From: an uncultured archaeon
Lineage (GTDB): Archaea; Iainarchaeota; Iainarchaeia; Iainarchaeales; GCA-2688035
Direction: 5' to 3'
Length of the DNA stretch: 64,000 nucleotides
NCBI GenBank assembly: GCA_964354805.1
Contig: CAYHBD010000009.1
Coordinates: 116,770-180,769 of the forward strand
Each line of letters begins with the position of its first letter. Within the stretch, counting starts at the first letter, position 1. Positions 27,086 through 35,258 of this stretch are shown here, one piece after another. The notes under the pieces were generated by a model. It was given only the letters and a program-made list of their open reading frames with translations. It had not been told where the DNA came from and made no database searches. The translations under genes and the position numbers were made by a program.

Positions 27086-27200
27086 ATGCCAATAAAATTG
27101 GATTTGACAAATTGAAAAATAAAATGAAAAAAAATTTAAAAGTGAAAAAAACATGCCGATAAAATTGGATTCACTGACAGGCGAGAAAAAAAGTAAGTGA
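27086..27200 (+). repeat. Two degenerate copies of the DP2 start
   Basis: ATG 27086 MPIKLDLTN*, ATG 27153 MPIKLDSLTGEKKSK*, real start 27206 MPIKIDID. Confidence 0.85.
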
Positions 27201-27205
27201 TAATT

Positions 27206-30200
27206 ATGCCGATAAAAATTGACATTGATGCAAGTAGTGCGGTTAAGAGCTACTATGATTCAGTTGCAGCTGAAGTGGAAAAACAGCTTTCCGTTGCAGC
27301 AGAGGCAAAGTCAAGGGGCTTTGATGTAAGCACTGCAATCGAAACAAAGCCTGTGGCAGACCTTGCCGACAGGACTGAAACAATTATCGGGCCGCCGGGA
27401 ATTGCAAAAAGGTACAGGGAAGTGTTTGAGGAAAAGAATGGAAACAGGATGGATGCAATATTCCAAATATTCAAGGAAATAATCGACCAGCAGTGGTGCA
27501 AGATTGTGGACGACCAGAAAAGGATTGAACAGGCAATCAAAACATGCCTTGTTTTGAATACCGAGGGCGTTGTTGTTGCACCGCTTGACGGGGTGCCTGA
27601 AATAAAAATAAGCAGAAACCCTGATGGAAGCAAATACATCGATGTTTACTACGCAGGCCCGATAAGGGCAGCAGGCGGAACATCAGCAGTATTGCCGCTT
27701 ATTTTAGGGGATTACGCAAAGCAGTTGCTCGGTCTGGACAGGTTCAAGCCGACAGAGGATGAAGTGGAGAGATATGTTGAAGAATGCCAGATTTATGAAG
27801 AGATTGTAAGCAGGCAGTACAGGCTGAGCGAGGCTGAAGTGAAAAAAATAATTAGGGGCTGCACTGTGTGCATCAACGGCGAACCAACGGAAGAAAGGGA
27901 AGTGGCAGTGCACAGGAACCTGCCGAGAATTGAAAGCAACAGGATAAGGGGCGGAATGTGCCTTGTGATAAGCGAAGGCGTTGCACTAAAAGCGCCGAAG
28001 ATTCTGCAGTTTTCGAAACAGCTTGGATTGGACTGGAGCTGGCTTGAAGGAATAATAAAGGTGGGAAAAAGCGAAAGCGGCGAGAGAAAAATTGAGCCGA
28101 ACGAAAAGTTTTTGGAGGGCACAGCAGCTGGAAGGCCGATCTTCTGCTATCCTGAGCGAATCGGGGGCTTCAGGCTGCGCTACGGCAAAGCAAGAAACAC
28201 CGGGATAATGGGGAAAGGGATTCACCCTGCAACAATGTTTCTGCTGGATGAATTTGTTGCTGTTGCAACACAGCTGAAAGTGGAAAGGCCTGGAAAAGCA
28301 GCAGGAATTTTCCCGGTTGATTCTATTGAAGGGCCGATAGTAAAGCTGCTGAACGGCTACGTTGTGAAAGTAAACAGCCTGCAGCAGGCAATTGAATTGA
28401 AACAGAAAATTGCCCAGATTCTTTTCTTGGGTGACATTCTTGTAAGCGTTGGCGATTTTCGGCACAGCGCCCATCCATTGGTGCCAGCCGGCTATTGTAG
28501 TGAATGGTGGGCAAAGGAACTGCAAAGGCAGCTGCGAAAAATCCCTGTGGAAAAAGAGCAGTTCGAGGAAATAATTGCAAAGCCGGAAAATGTAAGCATT
28601 GAACAGGCAATTGAATTGAGCGAAAAATTCAATGCGCCGCTGCACCCGAACGCGCTGTATTACTATGACGCTTTGAACAAAAATGAATTAATTCAATTAA
28701 TTAGTTTCTTGCAGAAAGCTGAAACAACCAAAGAAGGCAAAAAAATTTCCGCGATTGAATTGCCAAAACAAGGAGCGGAAAAACAACTGCTTGAAAAAAT
28801 TGGTTTGCCACACAAGGTTGAGGGCGACAAAATAATAATTGACGCAGATAATGCCCTTGCTTTAACCAAAACACTTGCCTTGCAGAAAAGCAGCCCTGAA
28901 ATTGCAGGCATAATAGAAAAATCCGCTGATGTAATTGACGCATTGAACAATTTAAGCGGCCTTGTGATTAGAGACCTTTGCGGAACATTTGTCGGAAGCA
29001 GGATGGGCAGGCCTGAGGCAAGCAGGCCGAGGAAAATGATCGGAAACCCAAACGTGCTTTTCCCAATAGGCTTGCACGGTGGCAACATCAGGAGCGTCAA
29101 CAAGGCAATGGCAAGTGAAACAGAGGGCAGCCCAGGCAAAATACTGGTTGAAATAGCTTTATTCAAATGCCCGGAATGCAGGCAGGTAAGGGAGCAGCCA
29201 TTCTGCCCTGCATGCGGCAAAAGAGCTGAAAAAATAAACCAGTGCCCGAACTGCGGCAGCATTTCTGCAACGGAAAAATGCGCAAAATGCGGCAAGATGA
29301 CATCGCCTTTCTCAAAAAGGGAGATTGACCTAGGCCTTACAATGCAACAGGCAGCACAGAACCTTGGCATAAAAGTGCCTGAACTTGTAAAAGGAGTAAA
29401 AGGGACAATAAACAAGGACAGAGTAACCGAACCCCTGGAAAAAGGACTGCTGAGAGCAAAGCACGACATGCATGTTTTCAGGGACGCGACAATAAGGTAT
29501 GAGCTGATAAATGCGCCCTTAACGCACTTCACTGCAGCAGAGATTGGAATAAGCATTGCCAAGCTGCGCGAATTAGGCTACAGTAAGGACAGTGAAGGAA
29601 AGGAATTGGAAAAGAACGGGCAATTGGTCGAATTAATGCCCCAGGACATAATAATCCACGAGCAGGCAGGCGAATTCTTTGCAAAAGAAACAAAATTCAT
29701 AGACGAACTGCTGCAGCGCTTCTACAAAATACAGCCATACTTCAACGTAAACAAAAAAGAAGATTTGGTGGGGCAACTGCTGCTTGGGCTAGCACCCCAC
29801 ACAAGCGCGGCAATAGTCGGCAGGGTGATTGGCTTCACAAAAGCAAGATGCTGCTTTGCCCACCCATTCTTCCACCAGACAAAGAGGCGAAACATAGACG
29901 GAGACCAGGATTCACTGCTTCTGCTTATGGATGCCCTGCTGAATTTCTCGCATTCGTATCTGCCGAGCAGCAGGGGAGGCAGAATGGATGCACCGCTCGT
30001 TTTCACCATTGCCTTGAAACCAACAGAAATAGATGATGAGTGCTATCAAATGGAGAAATGCAGCAGCTATCCGCTTGAATTGTATGAAATGGCCCAGAAA
30101 ATAATGCCGGCTGATGTAAGCGGCATTGAAAGAGTGAAAGACAGCCTTGGCAAGCAAAGCCAGTATGACGGATTCGAGTGCACGCATTCAACAAGCCAGT

Positions 30201-30643
30201 TTGATGCCGGTCCTACAACAAGCAGATATGTTACGCTTGGCACAATGGAGGAAAAGCTGAGGGCGCAGGCAAAACTGCAGTTCAAAATCGCGGCATGCGA
30301 AGGAAAAGACGCCATGGAAAGAGTGATGGTATCGCACCTTTTGCCTGACATAATCGGAAACACCAGGGCATTCAGCAGGCAGCAGTTTCGCTGCACTGCA
30401 TGCAACGCAAAAATGAGGAGGATTCCGCTTGACGGAAAATGCATTCAGTGCGGAAAACCCAGCGTCATTCTGACAATAGCGCAGGGCAGCGTGCGAAAAT
30501 ACCTGCTGATAGCGAAAGCGCTTGCGGAAGAATACCAGCTAAGCGATTACCTGAAGCAGAGGCTTGAATTAGCCGGCAGGGAAATAGACAGCATATTCCA
30601 AAACGAGCAAAAAGAGCAAAAAAAGCTGGCGGAATTTGTTTAA
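27206..30643 (+). CDS. polC: DNA polymerase D large subunit DP2
   Basis: YYAGPIRAAGGT, GGFRLRYG, RMGRPE, KRRNIDGDQD, GGRMDAPL, zinc fingers; no intein evident. Confidence 0.96.
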   Translation: MPIKIDIDASSAVKSYYDSVAAEVEKQLSVAAEAKSRGFDVSTAIETKPVADLADRTETIIGPPGIAKRYREVFEEKNGNRMDAIFQIFKEIIDQQWCKIVDDQKRIEQAIKTCLVLNTEGVVVAPLDGVPEIKISRNPDGSKYIDVYYAGPIRAAGGTSAVLPLILGDYAKQLLGLDRFKPTEDEVERYVEECQIYEEIVSRQYRLSEAEVKKIIRGCTVCINGEPTEEREVAVHRNLPRIESNRIRGGMCLVISEGVALKAPKILQFSKQLGLDWSWLEGIIKVGKSESGERKIEPNEKFLEGTAAGRPIFCYPERIGGFRLRYGKARNTGIMGKGIHPATMFLLDEFVAVATQLKVERPGKAAGIFPVDSIEGPIVKLLNGYVVKVNSLQQAIELKQKIAQILFLGDILVSVGDFRHSAHPLVPAGYCSEWWAKELQRQLRKIPVEKEQFEEIIAKPENVSIEQAIELSEKFNAPLHPNALYYYDALNKNELIQLISFLQKAETTKEGKKISAIELPKQGAEKQLLEKIGLPHKVEGDKIIIDADNALALTKTLALQKSSPEIAGIIEKSADVIDALNNLSGLVIRDLCGTFVGSRMGRPEASRPRKMIGNPNVLFPIGLHGGNIRSVNKAMASETEGSPGKILVEIALFKCPECRQVREQPFCPACGKRAEKINQCPNCGSISATEKCAKCGKMTSPFSKREIDLGLTMQQAAQNLGIKVPELVKGVKGTINKDRVTEPLEKGLLRAKHDMHVFRDATIRYELINAPLTHFTAAEIGISIAKLRELGYSKDSEGKELEKNGQLVELMPQDIIIHEQAGEFFAKETKFIDELLQRFYKIQPYFNVNKKEDLVGQLLLGLAPHTSAAIVGRVIGFTKARCCFAHPFFHQTKRRNIDGDQDSLLLLMDALLNFSHSYLPSSRGGRMDAPLVFTIALKPTEIDDECYQMEKCSSYPLELYEMAQKIMPADVSGIERVKDSLGKQSQYDGFECTHSTSQFDAGPTTSRYVTLGTMEEKLRAQAKLQFKIAACEGKDAMERVMVSHLLPDIIGNTRAFSRQQFRCTACNAKMRRIPLDGKCIQCGKPSVILTIAQGSVRKYLLIAKALAEEYQLSDYLKQRLELAGREIDSIFQNEQKEQKKLAEFV

Positions 30644-30723
30644 GTGGAAGGGCAGACCCGAAACAATGTTTTTTAAAATAAACCTGAAAATCTTATTTAT
30701 ATAAACTGCTAAAGGGAAAAAGT

Positions 30724-31005
30724 ATGGCTGCGAATAAACCTGCATTTCACGGGATTACAAAATCAAGTATGCACAATGTTGGTGGCGGCAGGCGCAGAGG
30801 AGGCACCAGAGGAGTCAGCGTTTACAAAAACGTGGTCATACTAAAGCCAGGGCAGAGAATAGTTTACAGATCAAGCTGCCCGCATAGCATTGTGGACGCA
30901 AAAGGGAGAACAATTAGACTTTTCAAGGAGTGGGCATTAACAGCAAGGAAAAAGATAAGCAGGCAAGGGGGTAATAAACCCACGTCGATGAGTGAAGAGG
31001 TATAA
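30724..31005 (+). CDS. Small basic hypothetical protein
   Basis: 93-aa ORF preceded by a TTTATATA box; no recognised motif. Confidence 0.5.
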   Translation: MAANKPAFHGITKSSMHNVGGGRRRGGTRGVSVYKNVVILKPGQRIVYRSSCPHSIVDAKGRTIRLFKEWALTARKKISRQGGNKPTSMSEEV

Positions 31006-31018
31006 AAGGGCCAAAAAA

Positions 31019-31072
31019 TTATTCTCCCATCAATTCCTTTTCCAAAACAGCCCTGAGTTTTTTTGTGCCGAA
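31019..31072 (-). repeat. Synonymously diverged copy of the cdc6 3' end
   Basis: Encodes FGTKKLRAVLEKELMGE* vs real FDAKKLRAVLEKELMGE*. Confidence 0.92.
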
Positions 31073-31076
31073 GGTT

Positions 31077-32402
31077 TTATTCTCCCATCAGCTCTTTTTC
31101 CAGCACAGCTCTTAATTTTTTCGCATCGAACCCGAGCTTTATGAGCGTGGTTGCTCCCCTTACTCCTTTTCCGCTTGCTGTTGTCAAAAGCAGCCCGTAT
31201 GTGTCCAATTCATTGATGTATTCCCTGAACCATCTGCTGCTTACAACGCTTTCGTTCAGGGAGAGAGCAATGCGCTTGTATTCGTTGTAGATGTCACCGC
31301 TGCAGAAAACGCCTTCCTCGCTTTGGCCTGAACCTGTTATTCTCTGCATTCCTTTTCCCTGTGTTGTGAGCAGGGAAATCGCGTACAACACCAGCTGCTG
31401 CTGCTTTGGCAGGGTTGCAACCATGTTAAGGATGATTTCCTGTTCAACGCTTGTCTTTGCCTTTCTTACCATGACATCAGTTACCTCGCTGAATTGCATT
31501 TTGTCCGCCTCTTCTCCGGCTCTAAGAAGCAGCATTATTGCTGTTCTTGCATCCCCTGTTTCCTGCGCTGCGATTGCGGATGCGAGGTTGATTGCGCTGC
31601 TGCTTACAGCGCCGGGCCTGAATGCCTTTGCAATCCTTTCCTGTAGGATTGCCTTGAGCTCTTCAGCGTTGTAAGGCGGGAAAACCATTTCTTTTTCCAA
31701 GAGTGCGCTTTTTGTTCTTGCATCAAGGCGCTCTTTGAAGAAAAGGTTGTTGCTTATTCCAAGGATGCTGATGCTACCGAATGGCAGCTCGTCGTTTGCC
31801 CTTGTAAGCGAGTAAACCAGTTCGTCCAAATCCTTGGCTTTGTCTATTTCATCCAGCACAATGATGAGGTTCTTTCCTTTTTCAGATGCCGCCTGCAGCA
31901 GTTTTTCGAACACAAAGGAAGCGCTGTATCCAATGAAGTCCTCTTTTGGATGGAATTTCTGCATTGCCTTGAGCAGAACCTTATATTTGCTGTTGTGGTT
32001 TCTGCAGTTAACGAAAGCGAAGTCAACTGGCGAATTGCTTTGCTCAATGAATTGCTGCAATTGCTGCAATACGTGCTTTACAGTGACTGTTTTTCCTGTT
32101 CCGACTTTTCCGTAAATGAAAACATTGTCTGCTTTTTTCCCCTGCAGAGTTGCAGCAAGCGCTGTGCTGATTTGCTCGATCTGCTTTTGCCTGAATGGCA
32201 GGGCATCAGGGACATAGTGCGGGGAAATAATGTTTTTATCCAGAAAAACAGTGTGCTTTGTGATAAACTGCTGGAAAATGTTCTGCTGCGGAAATGTTTC
32301 GTCCTGTAGTGAAACAATTTTTTTCTGCTGCAGCAATGTTTCGTTCTGCGCTGAAACAATTTTCTGCCCCAGTCCCACCAATGTCTGCTGTGCCACACCC
32401 AT
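31077..32402 (-). CDS. cdc6: Orc1/Cdc6 replication initiator
   Basis: YVPDALPFR, Walker A GKVGTGKT, Walker B IVLDEID, FPPYNAEEL, GDAR, C-terminal wH. Confidence 0.93.
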   Translation of the reverse strand: MGVAQQTLVGLGQKIVSAQNETLLQQKKIVSLQDETFPQQNIFQQFITKHTVFLDKNIISPHYVPDALPFRQKQIEQISTALAATLQGKKADNVFIYGKVGTGKTVTVKHVLQQLQQFIEQSNSPVDFAFVNCRNHNSKYKVLLKAMQKFHPKEDFIGYSASFVFEKLLQAASEKGKNLIIVLDEIDKAKDLDELVYSLTRANDELPFGSISILGISNNLFFKERLDARTKSALLEKEMVFPPYNAEELKAILQERIAKAFRPGAVSSSAINLASAIAAQETGDARTAIMLLLRAGEEADKMQFSEVTDVMVRKAKTSVEQEIILNMVATLPKQQQLVLYAISLLTTQGKGMQRITGSGQSEEGVFCSGDIYNEYKRIALSLNESVVSSRWFREYINELDTYGLLLTTASGKGVRGATTLIKLGFDAKKLRAVLEKELMGE

Positions 32403-32748
32403 TTGAACCCCGCCTGATTGTTGATTTGTTCAAAAAACAATTGAACCAAAAAAATCCCTTAAATTTTTTCCTTTTAAAAGGTTTAATTCAATTGAAAAAA
32501 TCGCTTTTTATTTTTTAAATGAATTTAAGAAATTGGGAGCATAATATTATTGGCTGTTGTTTTAAAAAAAGGGAGGGCTTTCAAAAGCAAACCATCCTGC
32601 TGCCAAAAATTTGCTTTCCTTACCGAAAAAAATTATTTTTCCGCAGCAAATTGTTATGTAGGATTGCAGAATACTATTTAAAAAAGTGTTTGTAAGGGAA
32701 ATACTATAACTAAAATTATTTAAAAAAAACCGGGGGTGTAGTAATTTT

Positions 32749-33108
32749 ATGGCTCTTTTGGAAAAAGTCCTAAAAAAATCAGACGCGCTTGACATGGAGG
32801 ACTTCCTGAACAACTTGGACAAGGAAGACGAAACAATGTACGAGGACGCCGACGCTTTTGTTAAGCCATTCACTCTTGCGGCAGACGCCGACGCGGACAT
32901 TGTCATAAACGAGGCAAAAGCCGGAAACATTGTCCTGCTGAATATCGGCGATTTAAGCAAGAGAAACGCGATAAAACTGAAGGAAATGGTTTCAAAAATA
33001 AGAGACGGCGTATACTCAATGAACGGAGACATAGCAAGAATAAGCCAAGACAGGGTCCTGATAACGCCAACCAGAGTAAAAATAGTTAAAAAGAGAGGGG
33101 CCCAGTAA
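32749..33108 (+). CDS. sepF: Cell division protein SepF
   Basis: EAKAGNIVLLNI, NGDIARISQDRVLITPTRVKI. Confidence 0.88.
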   Translation: MALLEKVLKKSDALDMEDFLNNLDKEDETMYEDADAFVKPFTLAADADADIVINEAKAGNIVLLNIGDLSKRNAIKLKEMVSKIRDGVYSMNGDIARISQDRVLITPTRVKIVKKRGAQ

Positions 33109-33158
33109 AGGGTTAGGGGAAACATTTTTTATTCCCTCAACTCCAAATATTTTTATAT

Positions 33159-33470
33159 ATGGTACTGCAAACCCCCTCATTTTCTATTTCAGAAAAAGCA
33201 CCTGAGCCTACGGCAGAATCGCCCGAGAGAAAAAAAGGCAGCATTGAAATAATAAAAGAAACACTGCAAGAGCTCAAACAGCCAAGCGCCTGGCTGCGCT
33301 ACACAAAAGAAATCGCCGCAGGCGTGGCAGGCAAAGCTGTTGCGCAAGGAAAAAAAGGCAGCAAGGGAGAAAAAAAGCACTTCTGGCAACTGCTGCAAAA
33401 ACCCAGCTTCTGGATAACAATTGCGCTGCTGATTATTCTGGCAATAGTGCTTGCATGGATTTATTTATAA
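33159..33470 (+). CDS. Hypothetical protein with C-terminal TM helix
   Basis: 103-aa ORF ending FWITIALLIILAIVLAWIYL. Confidence 0.55.
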   Translation: MVLQTPSFSISEKAPEPTAESPERKKGSIEIIKETLQELKQPSAWLRYTKEIAAGVAGKAVAQGKKGSKGEKKHFWQLLQKPSFWITIALLIILAIVLAWIYL

Positions 33471-34251
33471 CCAGCCTGTCAATCCCCTTCAGCAGCAATT
33501 CTTTTTCCTTCGGCAATTTGTTGTTTTGGAAAAAAATCGCATTGCCGAACAAATAAAGCTGCGTTGGAAAGAAAGAATTGGTTAATTTGAACTGGTAAAG
33601 CCTGCACTCTTTATTGCAAGGGAAAACGCCGATTTTGCCGTGAAAAGAAATTTTATCACAGTTTGCAGCAAGACACAAACGAGTTGCTGAAACAAAGCAA
33701 AAAGGAAAGTAAAGGGAGCAGCGCAGCCTGCTCTTGCCCAAATTGGTGGCAATGCCCTGCGCCAAGTTATCCAACTCAACCCTGGCAACACCATTCTGCT
33801 GCAAAAACTTTTGGAAATGACTATTTGCAGCATGGCTCTGCATTAAGTGTGCGTAGAATTCCTTTGGAACTTTGGCTTTGAATGACGAAATCCTTGGGTC
33901 CCTGTACTGCCTGTTCAGCAGCCTGCCTGCAATCAGGGTTGCCTTGCTTTCTTTTGCAGCGTGCAGCAAGCCGTAATCGTTTACAACCAGCTCATCGCGC
34001 TCTGAAAGCATCTCTGCAAGAGGCAGAACAGAGCGCATTCCTGCATTTGTCAAAAAAGGCGTTACAAAAGAAAAACCGATTTCGTTCGCAGCACAAAAAT
34101 TTTTAACAAAAAGGAAATCCTTTTTGGTTGGCAACAATCGTTCACAAAATTCAGCGCCGAAATAAATTCTATTAAATGATTTATCCCACTGGCGCAATTG
34201 CACCTTATTTTCTACAAACAAAGCTTTCTCAATGCCCTTCATATTTTCCAC
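33433..34251 (-). CDS. U32-family-like protein (second component of a UbiU/UbiV-like pair)
   Basis: RIYFGAEFCERLLP, LVVNDYG, GRLL, RVELDN, RLC..C..C..C; overlaps the upstream U32 gene. Confidence 0.7.
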   Translation of the reverse strand: MENMKGIEKALFVENKVQLRQWDKSFNRIYFGAEFCERLLPTKKDFLFVKNFCAANEIGFSFVTPFLTNAGMRSVLPLAEMLSERDELVVNDYGLLHAAKESKATLIAGRLLNRQYRDPRISSFKAKVPKEFYAHLMQSHAANSHFQKFLQQNGVARVELDNLAQGIATNLGKSRLRCSLYFPFCFVSATRLCLAANCDKISFHGKIGVFPCNKECRLYQFKLTNSFFPTQLYLFGNAIFFQNNKLPKEKELLLKGIDRLVINKSMQALLPE

Positions 34252-35258
34252 TTCCCTGCGCTCGGGTAATAGCAGTTATTGCACTCGCAGGCCCTGTGAT
34301 ACAAATCAAAGTAAAGCCTGCCTGCCTCTTCCGCGAATTTTTTTGCAGGCAACTTTTTTGCATGCGAAGCGTTTTTTCGCAAGCCTTTTGTTAAAAGGCT
34401 TAAAGCAATCCCCTCTTTCACGGCAGCAATGTCCGCAATCTTTTTCTGCAGGCTGTTTGCCCTGCCTGCAATCTTCACTGAATCAACGCCGGCTTTGAGA
34501 AAAAAGGGCAAAGCGCACAAGCCGCAGTCATTATAGACAGTGTTGCACCAGACCTTTGCGTGCGCTGCAGCAATCTCCTTCTTGCAGGGAGCAGCGTTTC
34601 CCAGAACGCTTACAGAATAATTCATCCTGCACGCGAGAGGTTGCATTGGCAATTGCTGGCTTGGCTCAACAATGTGCTGGAAAGAGCACAAGCCGTCAAT
34701 GAAAGGGCAGATTGCATTCAAAACAAAGCACTCTGTTTCCAAGCCAAACCTTTTCGCCTGCCTTGAAAGCTGCACTGCTTCATTAACAGCCAAATGCCTT
34801 GGAAGAACAATTCGCTGAACGCCGAGCTGCTTGAAGAAATGCAGGGAATTGCTGTTGAAGCAGGGCTGCCCTGTGCTCAAAGAAATTTTTGCACCAGGAA
34901 ACTTTTCCCGAGCCAACTGAATTAGAACAGGGTCTGCAATTATCAGCCCAGCTGCTCCGGCAGCAAGAGCTTGCTTAACATAGCGCAAAACAATTGGCAT
35001 CTGTTCCTGGCTGTAAAAATGCGCGTTGAATGCAGCAAAAACTGGCACATTGCGCTTTTCAGCTGTTCTCACCGCGAGGCGCAATTCATTGAAAGAGGAA
35101 AGGTTCGCTGCCTTGTCATGCCTCAGGTTTATGCTCCCAACGAAAGTGAAGCGCTTTGCCCAATCAGGGGTCATAACGCCACAGTATAATTCGTTTGCCC
35201 CTGCTTCAATCAGGGGCAGCACTTCTGCACTGCTTGCAAAGGGAGAAAGTATTTGCAT
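34239..35258 (-). CDS. Peptidase U32 family (Fe-S hydroxylase-like) protein
   Basis: AGANELYCG, LIIADP, RIVLPRHL, CPFIDGLC, CGLC, SVKIAGR. Confidence 0.85.
   Translation of the reverse strand: MQILSPFASSAEVLPLIEAGANELYCGVMTPDWAKRFTFVGSINLRHDKAANLSSFNELRLAVRTAEKRNVPVFAAFNAHFYSQEQMPIVLRYVKQALAAGAAGLIIADPVLIQLAREKFPGAKISLSTGQPCFNSNSLHFFKQLGVQRIVLPRHLAVNEAVQLSRQAKRFGLETECFVLNAICPFIDGLCSFQHIVEPSQQLPMQPLACRMNYSVSVLGNAAPCKKEIAAAHAKVWCNTVYNDCGLCALPFFLKAGVDSVKIAGRANSLQKKIADIAAVKEGIALSLLTKGLRKNASHAKKLPAKKFAEEAGRLYFDLYHRACECNNCYYPSAGKWKI

Follow-up and report, generated by a model that had tools for sequence, protein, structure and literature searches.

Why should a second copy of a gene's last codons lie, out of frame, just beyond the stop codon, and why should the two copies differ only at silent positions? 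The question is raised by the cdc6/orc1 gene in a 64,000-nucleotide stretch of DNA from an uncultured archaeon (GenBank assembly GCA_964354805.1, contig CAYHBD010000009.1, positions 116,770 to 180,769 of the forward strand). We refer to this entire stretch as the window and number all positions from its first letter. The gene is on the minus strand (31077-32402). Below, its 3' end is called the live tail and the downstream copy is called the echo. Our data are best explained if the echo is the downstream unit of an old, 62 nt microhomology-mediated tandem duplication (MTD) across the cdc6 stop codon. We assign this explanation a probability of roughly 0.65.

The cdc6 gene end is present twice

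The live gene was recognised from the list of open reading frames (ORFs), its translation and Pfam. It encodes an Orc1/Cdc6 protein of 441 aa with the domains AAA (AAA+), Cdc6_lid and Cdc6_C (winged-helix). Orthologues were present in all 40 of the 40 relatives searched. On the minus strand the live gene ends with the codons AAA AAA TTA AGA GCT GTG CTG GAA AAA GAG CTG ATG GGA GAA TAA (31121-31077). The echo, on the same strand, reads AAA AAA CTC AGG GCT GTT TTG GAA AAG GAA TTG ATG GGA GAA TAA (31063-31019). Both translate as KKLRAVLEKELMGE*. Eight base differences separate the copies; they fall in 7 codons, at codon positions 1, 3, 3, 3, 1, 3, 3 and 1, and every one of them is silent. The offset between the copies is 58 nt, which places the echo in the +1 frame with respect to the gene. 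An earlier note on this DNA, made from the letters alone, had already described the seven synonymous codon differences, the 58 nt offset and the loss of frame, and the window sequence bears this out. The echo is longer than that note had seen; it begins at an ATAA that overlaps the live stop codon (31080). A repeat search returned the pair as a 54 nt direct repeat with 78% identity, in which the longest identical run is 14 nt (TGATGGGAGAATAA).

Chance similarity was rejected. The local alignment of the tail with the downstream DNA scores 25, whereas the maximum in 1285 mismatched-gene controls was <16. Furthermore, in simulations a single random change was silent in 19% of cases, and 8 random substitutions were all silent with a probability of ~5e-6. 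A reading of the echo as a small ORF in its own right was also rejected, since it lacks a usable start codon and its own frame is closed by stops just upstream. Two antisense ORFs (30992-31144 and 31063-31290) were judged to be spurious by-products of the repeat. An origin from a paralogue was rejected likewise, since the second cdc6-like gene of this genome (34% identity) ends with ...PKSRLEPSTTNK*, unlike the echo.

Two contiguous units are bounded by ATAA arms

An in-register alignment resolves the locus into two units on the minus strand. Unit 1, the live tail, is 62 nt in length (31081-31142); it starts with an ATAA inside codons I-K and ends before the ATAA that bears the stop codon. Unit 2, the echo, is 58 nt in length (31023-31080) and consists of a decayed head of 17 nt and an intact core (31063-31023). 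The head is a decayed copy of codons K-L-G-F-D-A that has acquired two 1 nt insertions, one 6 nt deletion and one substitution, as counted from the gapped unit alignment. This accounts for the length of unit 2 (58 = 62 + 2 - 6 nt). What might be taken for a spacer, AACCTTCGGC, aligns with AAA CTT GGC in the live gene of G001, a genome from outside the genus. Similarly, the live stop and the echo core are separated by 13 nt (AACCTTCGGCACA) that align with the AAA CTT GGC TTT GAT GCA that precedes KK in the G001 live gene. Hence, the units are contiguous and head to tail, with 0 nt of unrelated DNA between the copies.

The same short arm occurs three times on the minus strand, and can be read in the window as either ATAA (4 nt) or ATAAA. 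The first arm is the ATAA in codons ATA AAG (31139-31142). The second, at the junction of the units, is formed by the last base of GAA and the live TAA stop (31077-31080). The third is the end of the echo with its relic TAA stop (31019-31022). The single-copy state is preserved in G001 and in G012, also from outside the genus, where two ATAA arms lie 62 nt apart. No echo was found in any of 28 other-genus loci for which downstream sequence was available (0/28). Unit 2 matches the G001 live tail in 51/62 columns, compared with 45/62 for its own live tail. For the echo core the corresponding figures are 42/45 and 37/45 bases.

This arrangement suggests the following course of events. The segment duplicated head to tail would have been 62 nt long, reaching from the ATAA in codons I-K, which precede the stop by 20 codons, up to the ATAA of GA-ATAA. 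Replication slippage, or a switch of template from one ATAA arm to the other, would presumably have produced the duplication. The protein would have been untouched because the downstream arm contains the stop codon; the upstream unit would still end the protein and the duplication would have cost nothing. The downstream unit would have become untranslated DNA between cdc6 and the convergent gene for the large subunit of DNA polymerase D (27197-30643, plus strand).

An orthologous echo is present in a sister species

The JGI metagenome contig Ga0315276_10082459 (P0124; here L040) is an independent assembly from the same genus. Its cdc6 protein is 91% identical to that encoded in the window, and the DNA is 88-92% identical over 3.2 kb. 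L040 was the only same-genus sequence read base by base; no further same-genus sequence was present in the genome-contig scan, and no other species of the genus in the genome search. The layout of L040 is the same. Unit 1 (2202-2263, 62 nt) is followed by unit 2 (2264-2326, 63 nt) and then by the third arm, ATAA (2327-2330). The L040 arms read ATCA, which is mutated, ATAG and ATAA. The L040 echo spans the entire 64 nt gap between the two stop codons. It reads GFDAKKLRAVFEKELTG, with L>F and M>T changes, before a 1 nt deletion destroys the frame. The 45 nt echo cores of the window and L040 are separated by 4 substitutions and 1 indel, in line with the 5.4 differences expected at the intergenic rate of this pair (P(<=5)=0.55).

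Contigs assembled from sequencing runs agree with this structure. These contigs, which are not single reads, stem from relatives, and their joints were accepted at 80% likeness. No single run contained more than 43% of the sampled words, none of those listed was an RNA run, and cover was missing from parts of the stretch in some of them. A 153 nt Logan contig from run X1 covers 30993-31145 and so contains both copies. A contig from run X3 joins the end of the polymerase gene to 31016, directly before the echo, as in L040. Thus, the echo exists in several independent assemblies and is not an artefact of this metagenome-assembled genome (MAG). Judged from the shared layout, the echo appears to predate the split of at least two species, those of the window and of L040, and we would place the duplication before that split. 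The echo is real, seems to be old and is free of coding selection, the last because its L040 orthologue has two missense changes and a frameshift and because the echo head in the window is broken by indels. The proposal of the earlier note that both copies evolved as coding DNA does not survive these same observations.

In a relative from run X4, 93% identical, the live stop is followed by TTTTTTCGTGTGTTTTTTCTTAT and then by TTCGGCA, a motif that makes up the echo head in the window. TTCGGCA is thus common to that head and to an X4 loose end that follows the live stop (TTTTTTCGTGTGTTTTTTCTTATTTCGGCA), and an X4 contig joins the polymerase end to 31078 with further letters between them. The short stretch from the live stop to the echo core appears to be a hotspot for indels among relatives.

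Most differences are placed on the live copy

We compared each difference between the copies with the sister species and the nearest outgroups. Polarisation with 16 family-wide relatives was too noisy, and hence the nearest outgroups were used. Seven of the eight differences were placed on the live copy, one was ambiguous and none was placed on the echo. At four sites (GTG vs GTT, AAA vs AAG, GAG vs GAA and the last CTG vs TTG) the echo state is shared with the L040 live gene, the L040 echo and G001, so that the live copy changed. The live copy also changed at the two sites of TTA vs CTC and the single site of AGA vs AGG; here the echo state is that of the outgroups, and the live state is found only in the L040 live gene (TTA also in the L040 echo). 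The outgroups are split at the first CTG vs TTG, which is the one ambiguous site.

The comparison with related cdc6 alleles had been proposed as a check in the earlier note; once run, it pointed to the echo as the carrier of the ancestral codons. The echo can thus be regarded as a likely fossil of the ancestral tail. The differences would all be silent because the live copy changed under purifying selection while the echo core stayed as it was. Since the duplication, the live tail would have accepted silent changes only, some of them probably as short recombination patches from related alleles. The echo core would have remained unchanged at the differing sites and the echo head would have decayed by indels. 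A complete lack of change in the 45 nt echo core would not be unusual, with 2.7 changes expected at the intergenic rate (P=0.07). The earlier note had argued that neutral decay cannot preserve a protein sequence. This is right in so far as 8 changes that are all silent need coding selection (p ~5e-6), but selection on one coding copy is enough.

Echoes at other gene ends in the same genome

We scanned the 1285 testable genes of the MAG for an echo of the last codons within 200 nt downstream, or of the first codons upstream. A 3' echo was found for 43/1285 genes and a 5' echo for 28. There were 5 matches in mid-gene positions and 0-2 in controls. The echoes range in identity from 100% to ~75%, with periods mostly of 43-66 nt, and several have clean arms with homology that continues beyond the stop. 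Over all 3' echoes, 64 changed codons are silent and 80 are not, which is near the ~42% silent estimated for a selected live copy paired with a neutral echo. The density of 3' and 5' echoes is 3.3% and 2.2% in this genome (G000), 1.6% and 0.9% in a genome of the same family (G038) and 0.5% and 0.2% in a genome of the same order (G004). These densities suggest a lineage-specific rise in tandem duplications of ~50-60 nt, or else their poor removal or greater retention. With dozens of such gene-end echoes in the genome, the one at cdc6 is an ordinary mutation scar.

Another nearly silent-only echo lies outside the window, at G000:C9:108355-108909 (minus strand). Here the tail AKEIDEEFGIKIDE* is followed by AKEIDEEFGIKIEE* at a period of 53. 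In the best local alignment, of 49 nt, all 6/6 mismatches are at third positions (5 silent codons, 1 non-silent). Over the full 45 nt tail there are 8 differences, including a change of the stop from TGA to TAA, and the arms are clean (TGA/TGA/TAA).

An island of silent divergence in the live tail

Compared with L040, the window contains an island of high divergence on the minus strand (31064-31163) that takes in the last 26 live codons, the junction and the decayed echo head. The 30 nt bins counted from 31163, 31133, 31103 and 31076 have 8, 5, 10 and 13 differences, whereas the echo-core bins have 3 and 0. Most other bins have 0-6 differences; the only others with high counts are in indel-rich stretches near the 5' end of the gene and at the outer edge of the alignment. 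Silent differences per codon are 0.54-0.73 in the live tail and 0.19 in the gene body; values between genera are 0.5-0.6. Since the window and L040 have live tails that are about equally derived, a single import into just one of the two lineages is not obviously enough. When the ancestral live tail is reconstructed, the echo is consistent with it at 7/8 sites, although the live tails are too diverged for a firm reconstruction.

Although the X1 contig is otherwise near-identical to the window (<=2 differences), 8 silent changes are packed into 18 nt of its live tail (31098-31115). The resulting codons, CTC AGG GCA GTT TTA GAG, are nearly the tail type of a co-occurring relative, whose 27 nt loose end (X2) reads CTC AGG GCA GTT TTA GAA AAG GAA. 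The X1 patch looks imported, which would mean that tail patches move between strains. Recombination among tail alleles probably adds to drift in the live tail, and we infer that it is the source of the excess silent change there. The suggestion in the earlier note that one copy is the displaced end of another allele finds no support for the echo, but draws some for the live tail from the divergence island and the X1 patch.

Weighing the explanations

Several observations weigh against a plain MTD followed by vertical descent. Silent changes between the window and L040 affect 17/26 codons in the tail, all of them silent-only, compared with 69/380 elsewhere (Fisher p=5e-7, for a tail interval chosen post hoc). 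Simple vertical descent does not predict such an island, for which imports, a rate that is raised locally or chimerism of the L040 contig appear to be needed. If 4-fold sites are taken as the yardstick, the echo core has changed too little (P(0)=0.001; echo vs echo, P(<=5)=0.01), so that some nucleotide-level constraint on it is possible. With 7 silent and 0 non-silent codons, the cdc6 pair is an outlier among the echoes of the genome (about 0.44^7 = 0.003 per echo). An identical junction would result if two alleles underwent unequal exchange at these ATAA arms, and hence the junction alone cannot prove that the units were identical at birth. Finally, a base-by-base reading was possible for one same-genus sequence only.

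A doubtful but possible alternative, which is the idea of the earlier note in a form that could work, is that one allele displaced another. Incoming DNA from a relative would have been joined by homology within cdc6 and, at its far end, at an ATAA upstream of the resident tail; the live tail would then be of foreign origin, and what had been the resident tail would survive, displaced, as the echo. The copies would already have been silently different at formation, and the event may have occurred separately in the lineages of the window and L040. Such an origin would accommodate the ancestral or resident codon set of the echo (the 42/45 core match to G001 and the X2 loose end) and live tails as diverged between the window and L040 as between different genera (0.54 vs 0.5-0.6 silent differences per codon). 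It also suits the decayed echo heads, which have no common derived change, the X1 strain patch and the few other echoes in the genome that are nearly silent-only. It predicts genomes within the clade of the window and L040 that have a single, echo-type live tail followed by TAATTTTTT. However, it calls for two parallel events at one site, or for one event and later imports, and is no more economical than MTD with imports. The window and L040 live tails have derived states in common (GCG ... TTA AGA), the implied foreign tract is only ~85-110 nt and no donor was identified. Moreover, echoes with 27-31 identical bases elsewhere in the genome mean that a local, in-genome process is certainly active. 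A broader version, which we hold to be speculative, is that gene tails beside echoes are repeatedly overwritten by the tails of congeneric species, through short homologous patches or through a join that is homologous on one side and made by microhomology on the other. The former resident end would survive as the echo, and silent-only echoes would mark recurrent gene-end swapping on top of tandem duplication. A related possibility, put forward just as tentatively, is that a terminator role then passes from the coding tail to the echo core.

That role is central to a quite unlikely explanation, by which selection keeps the echo core as a nucleotide-level element, for instance a two-way oligo-T terminator or a 3' untranslated region. 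The role would have left the coding tail and freed its silent sites. A run of six T after the relic stop of the echo (T6, 31013-31018, minus strand) is the first run of at least five T past the live stop on the sense strand, and is likely to be the original cdc6 terminator; in an X4 related contig, a loose end reads GAATAA then TTTTTT. On the plus strand, the complement of the echo KK codons is a T7 run (31058-31064), also present in the L040 echo, which is a possible terminator for the convergent genes. The core is therefore bounded by T7 and T6, the L040 echo fills the whole gap between the stops, and change in the core is slower than at 4-fold sites (P=0.01) but fast in the neighbouring echo head and in the live tail. 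Nevertheless, divergence of the core equals that of ordinary intergenic DNA in this species pair, and in L040 the copy has gained an internal T5 run and undergone both a substitution and a deletion. Decay is normal in dozens of other echoes, and the tails of G012 and G001 differ freely (14/62), which argues against a pre-existing nucleotide constraint. A structured RNA was rejected: the predicted fold was no better than shuffled sequences (z = +0.45 to +0.56), and no Rfam family reached its gathering score, the only hit being RT-17 elsewhere in the gene (23.4 bits; gathering 40.4). An assembly that placed two strain variants of the gene end in series is very improbable. The MAG is in 49 contigs, the sample contains related strains and the evidence comes from contigs and not raw reads, but the diverged, orthologous echo in the independent JGI assembly, the X1 Logan contig across both copies and the X3 contig all speak against it; the longest identical run, 14 nt, is too short to mislead a k-mer assembler. 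It is scarcely credible that the echo is translated via a +1 shift at the live stop to add a second copy of the C-terminal helix. The echo is in the +1 frame in both the window (58 nt) and L040 (64 nt), yet a common frame has a one-in-three chance, no shift-prone motif was identified, the L040 echo has a frameshift and two missense changes and the echo head in the window is broken by indels. An integrative element is not supported, and nor is the proposal of gene-end restoration during integration: there is no DNA between the copies, the junction is ATAA, there is no long identical core (14 nt, 78%) and Pfam found no integrase domain in the six ORFs tested around the site (27197-35258).

MTD of the cdc6 gene end, with later changes to the live tail, thus remains our preferred explanation. 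For annotation, the echo should be considered neither an attachment site, nor a pseudogene of a second cdc6 gene, nor a recoding signal. For method, silent-only differences between a piece of a gene and a neighbouring copy do not prove that both are coding; one selected copy and one little-changed fossil give the same picture, and a sister genome and outgroups reveal which of them changed. The echo would preserve ancestral codons of a replication-initiator tail, and so exposes silent turnover in the live tail at ~3-4 times that of the gene body. If the same holds in more genomes, short recombination imports at gene ends may be frequent in uncultured DPANN archaea.

Genome and neighbouring sequences

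The source MAG is 1.38 Mb in 49 contigs. Its nearest relatives, DPANN archaea, go under the labels Candidatus Iainarchaeum or Diapherotrites. In the Pfam scan the six ORFs comprised the large subunit of polymerase D, cdc6, a peptidase U32 and 3 ORFs of 93, 187 and 272 aa without a family; the 93 aa and 187 aa ORFs also found nothing in NCBIfam. A lineage-specific insert of 372 nt (30644-31015) lies exactly between the polymerase D stop and the echo, and is the only lineage-specific DNA nearby. It is beyond the echo and outside the pair of copies. The insert has its own AT-rich upstream region and a basic ORF of 93 codons (30724-31005, plus strand), for which the sole homologue among 22 same-family genomes searched was in G006 (57% identity). 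L040 and the X3 contig (joint 30641>31016) lack the insert and both keep the echo.

Within cdc6, an in-frame tandem repeat of 42 nt (85% identity; 32281-32363) occupies codons ~14-41 in the N-terminal extension. The number of 14- or 7-residue repeats varies across five same-genus Cdc6 proteins (434, 441 and 448 aa). These N-terminal repeats are tolerated, polymorphic tandem duplications within the gene. The AT-rich gap upstream of cdc6 (32403-32561) contains a direct repeat of 31 nt whose copies are spaced 46 nt apart (32439-32469 and 32485-32515), together with several short inverted repeats, and is a candidate origin or promoter region. One 30 nt bin in this gap is an indel hotspot with respect to L040 (14 differences). 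Divergence from L040 is also raised in the last 10 codons of polymerase D (30614-30643), with 6 differences, where the rest of the 900 nt aligned has 0-5 per 30 nt and mostly 1-3.

Comparison with known systems

Integrative elements that restore a gene end insert in the 3' part of a tRNA gene or a protein gene and bring along the sequence that replaces it. The cdc6 locus resembles the outcome of such restoration in having a gene end and a displaced near-copy in direct orientation, with the protein intact. It differs in that no element lies between or beside the copies; the 372 nt insert is outside the pair and is missing in echo-bearing L040. Homology-facilitated illegitimate recombination, with one homologous anchor and one microhomology join, occurs in naturally transformable bacteria. 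Its product would be a foreign end ahead of the resident one, with microhomology at the join and silent differences present from the start. At cdc6 no donor was identified and no anchor boundary beyond the island of ~100 nt, and the same junction arises from an in-genome MTD. Short-patch gene conversion or import produces clusters of silent changes in near-identical sequence, as in the X1 patch and the island between the window and L040. It would explain the state of the live tail but not the origin of the echo.

The closest parallel is with MTDs themselves. Such duplications, with arms >3 nt, have been documented across bacteria and archaea and are depleted from coding DNA by selection (PMC13167724). 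The cdc6 echo shares with them two head-to-tail units, a short arm present three times and single-copy relatives that have both arms. Since selection clears such duplications from coding DNA, survivors straddle gene borders, as here. The cdc6 echo differs from these cases in being old and apparently fixed in at least two species, with one unit frozen while the other drifts under selection. In addition, gene-end survivors are several times denser here than in the two relatives to which the same scan was applied.

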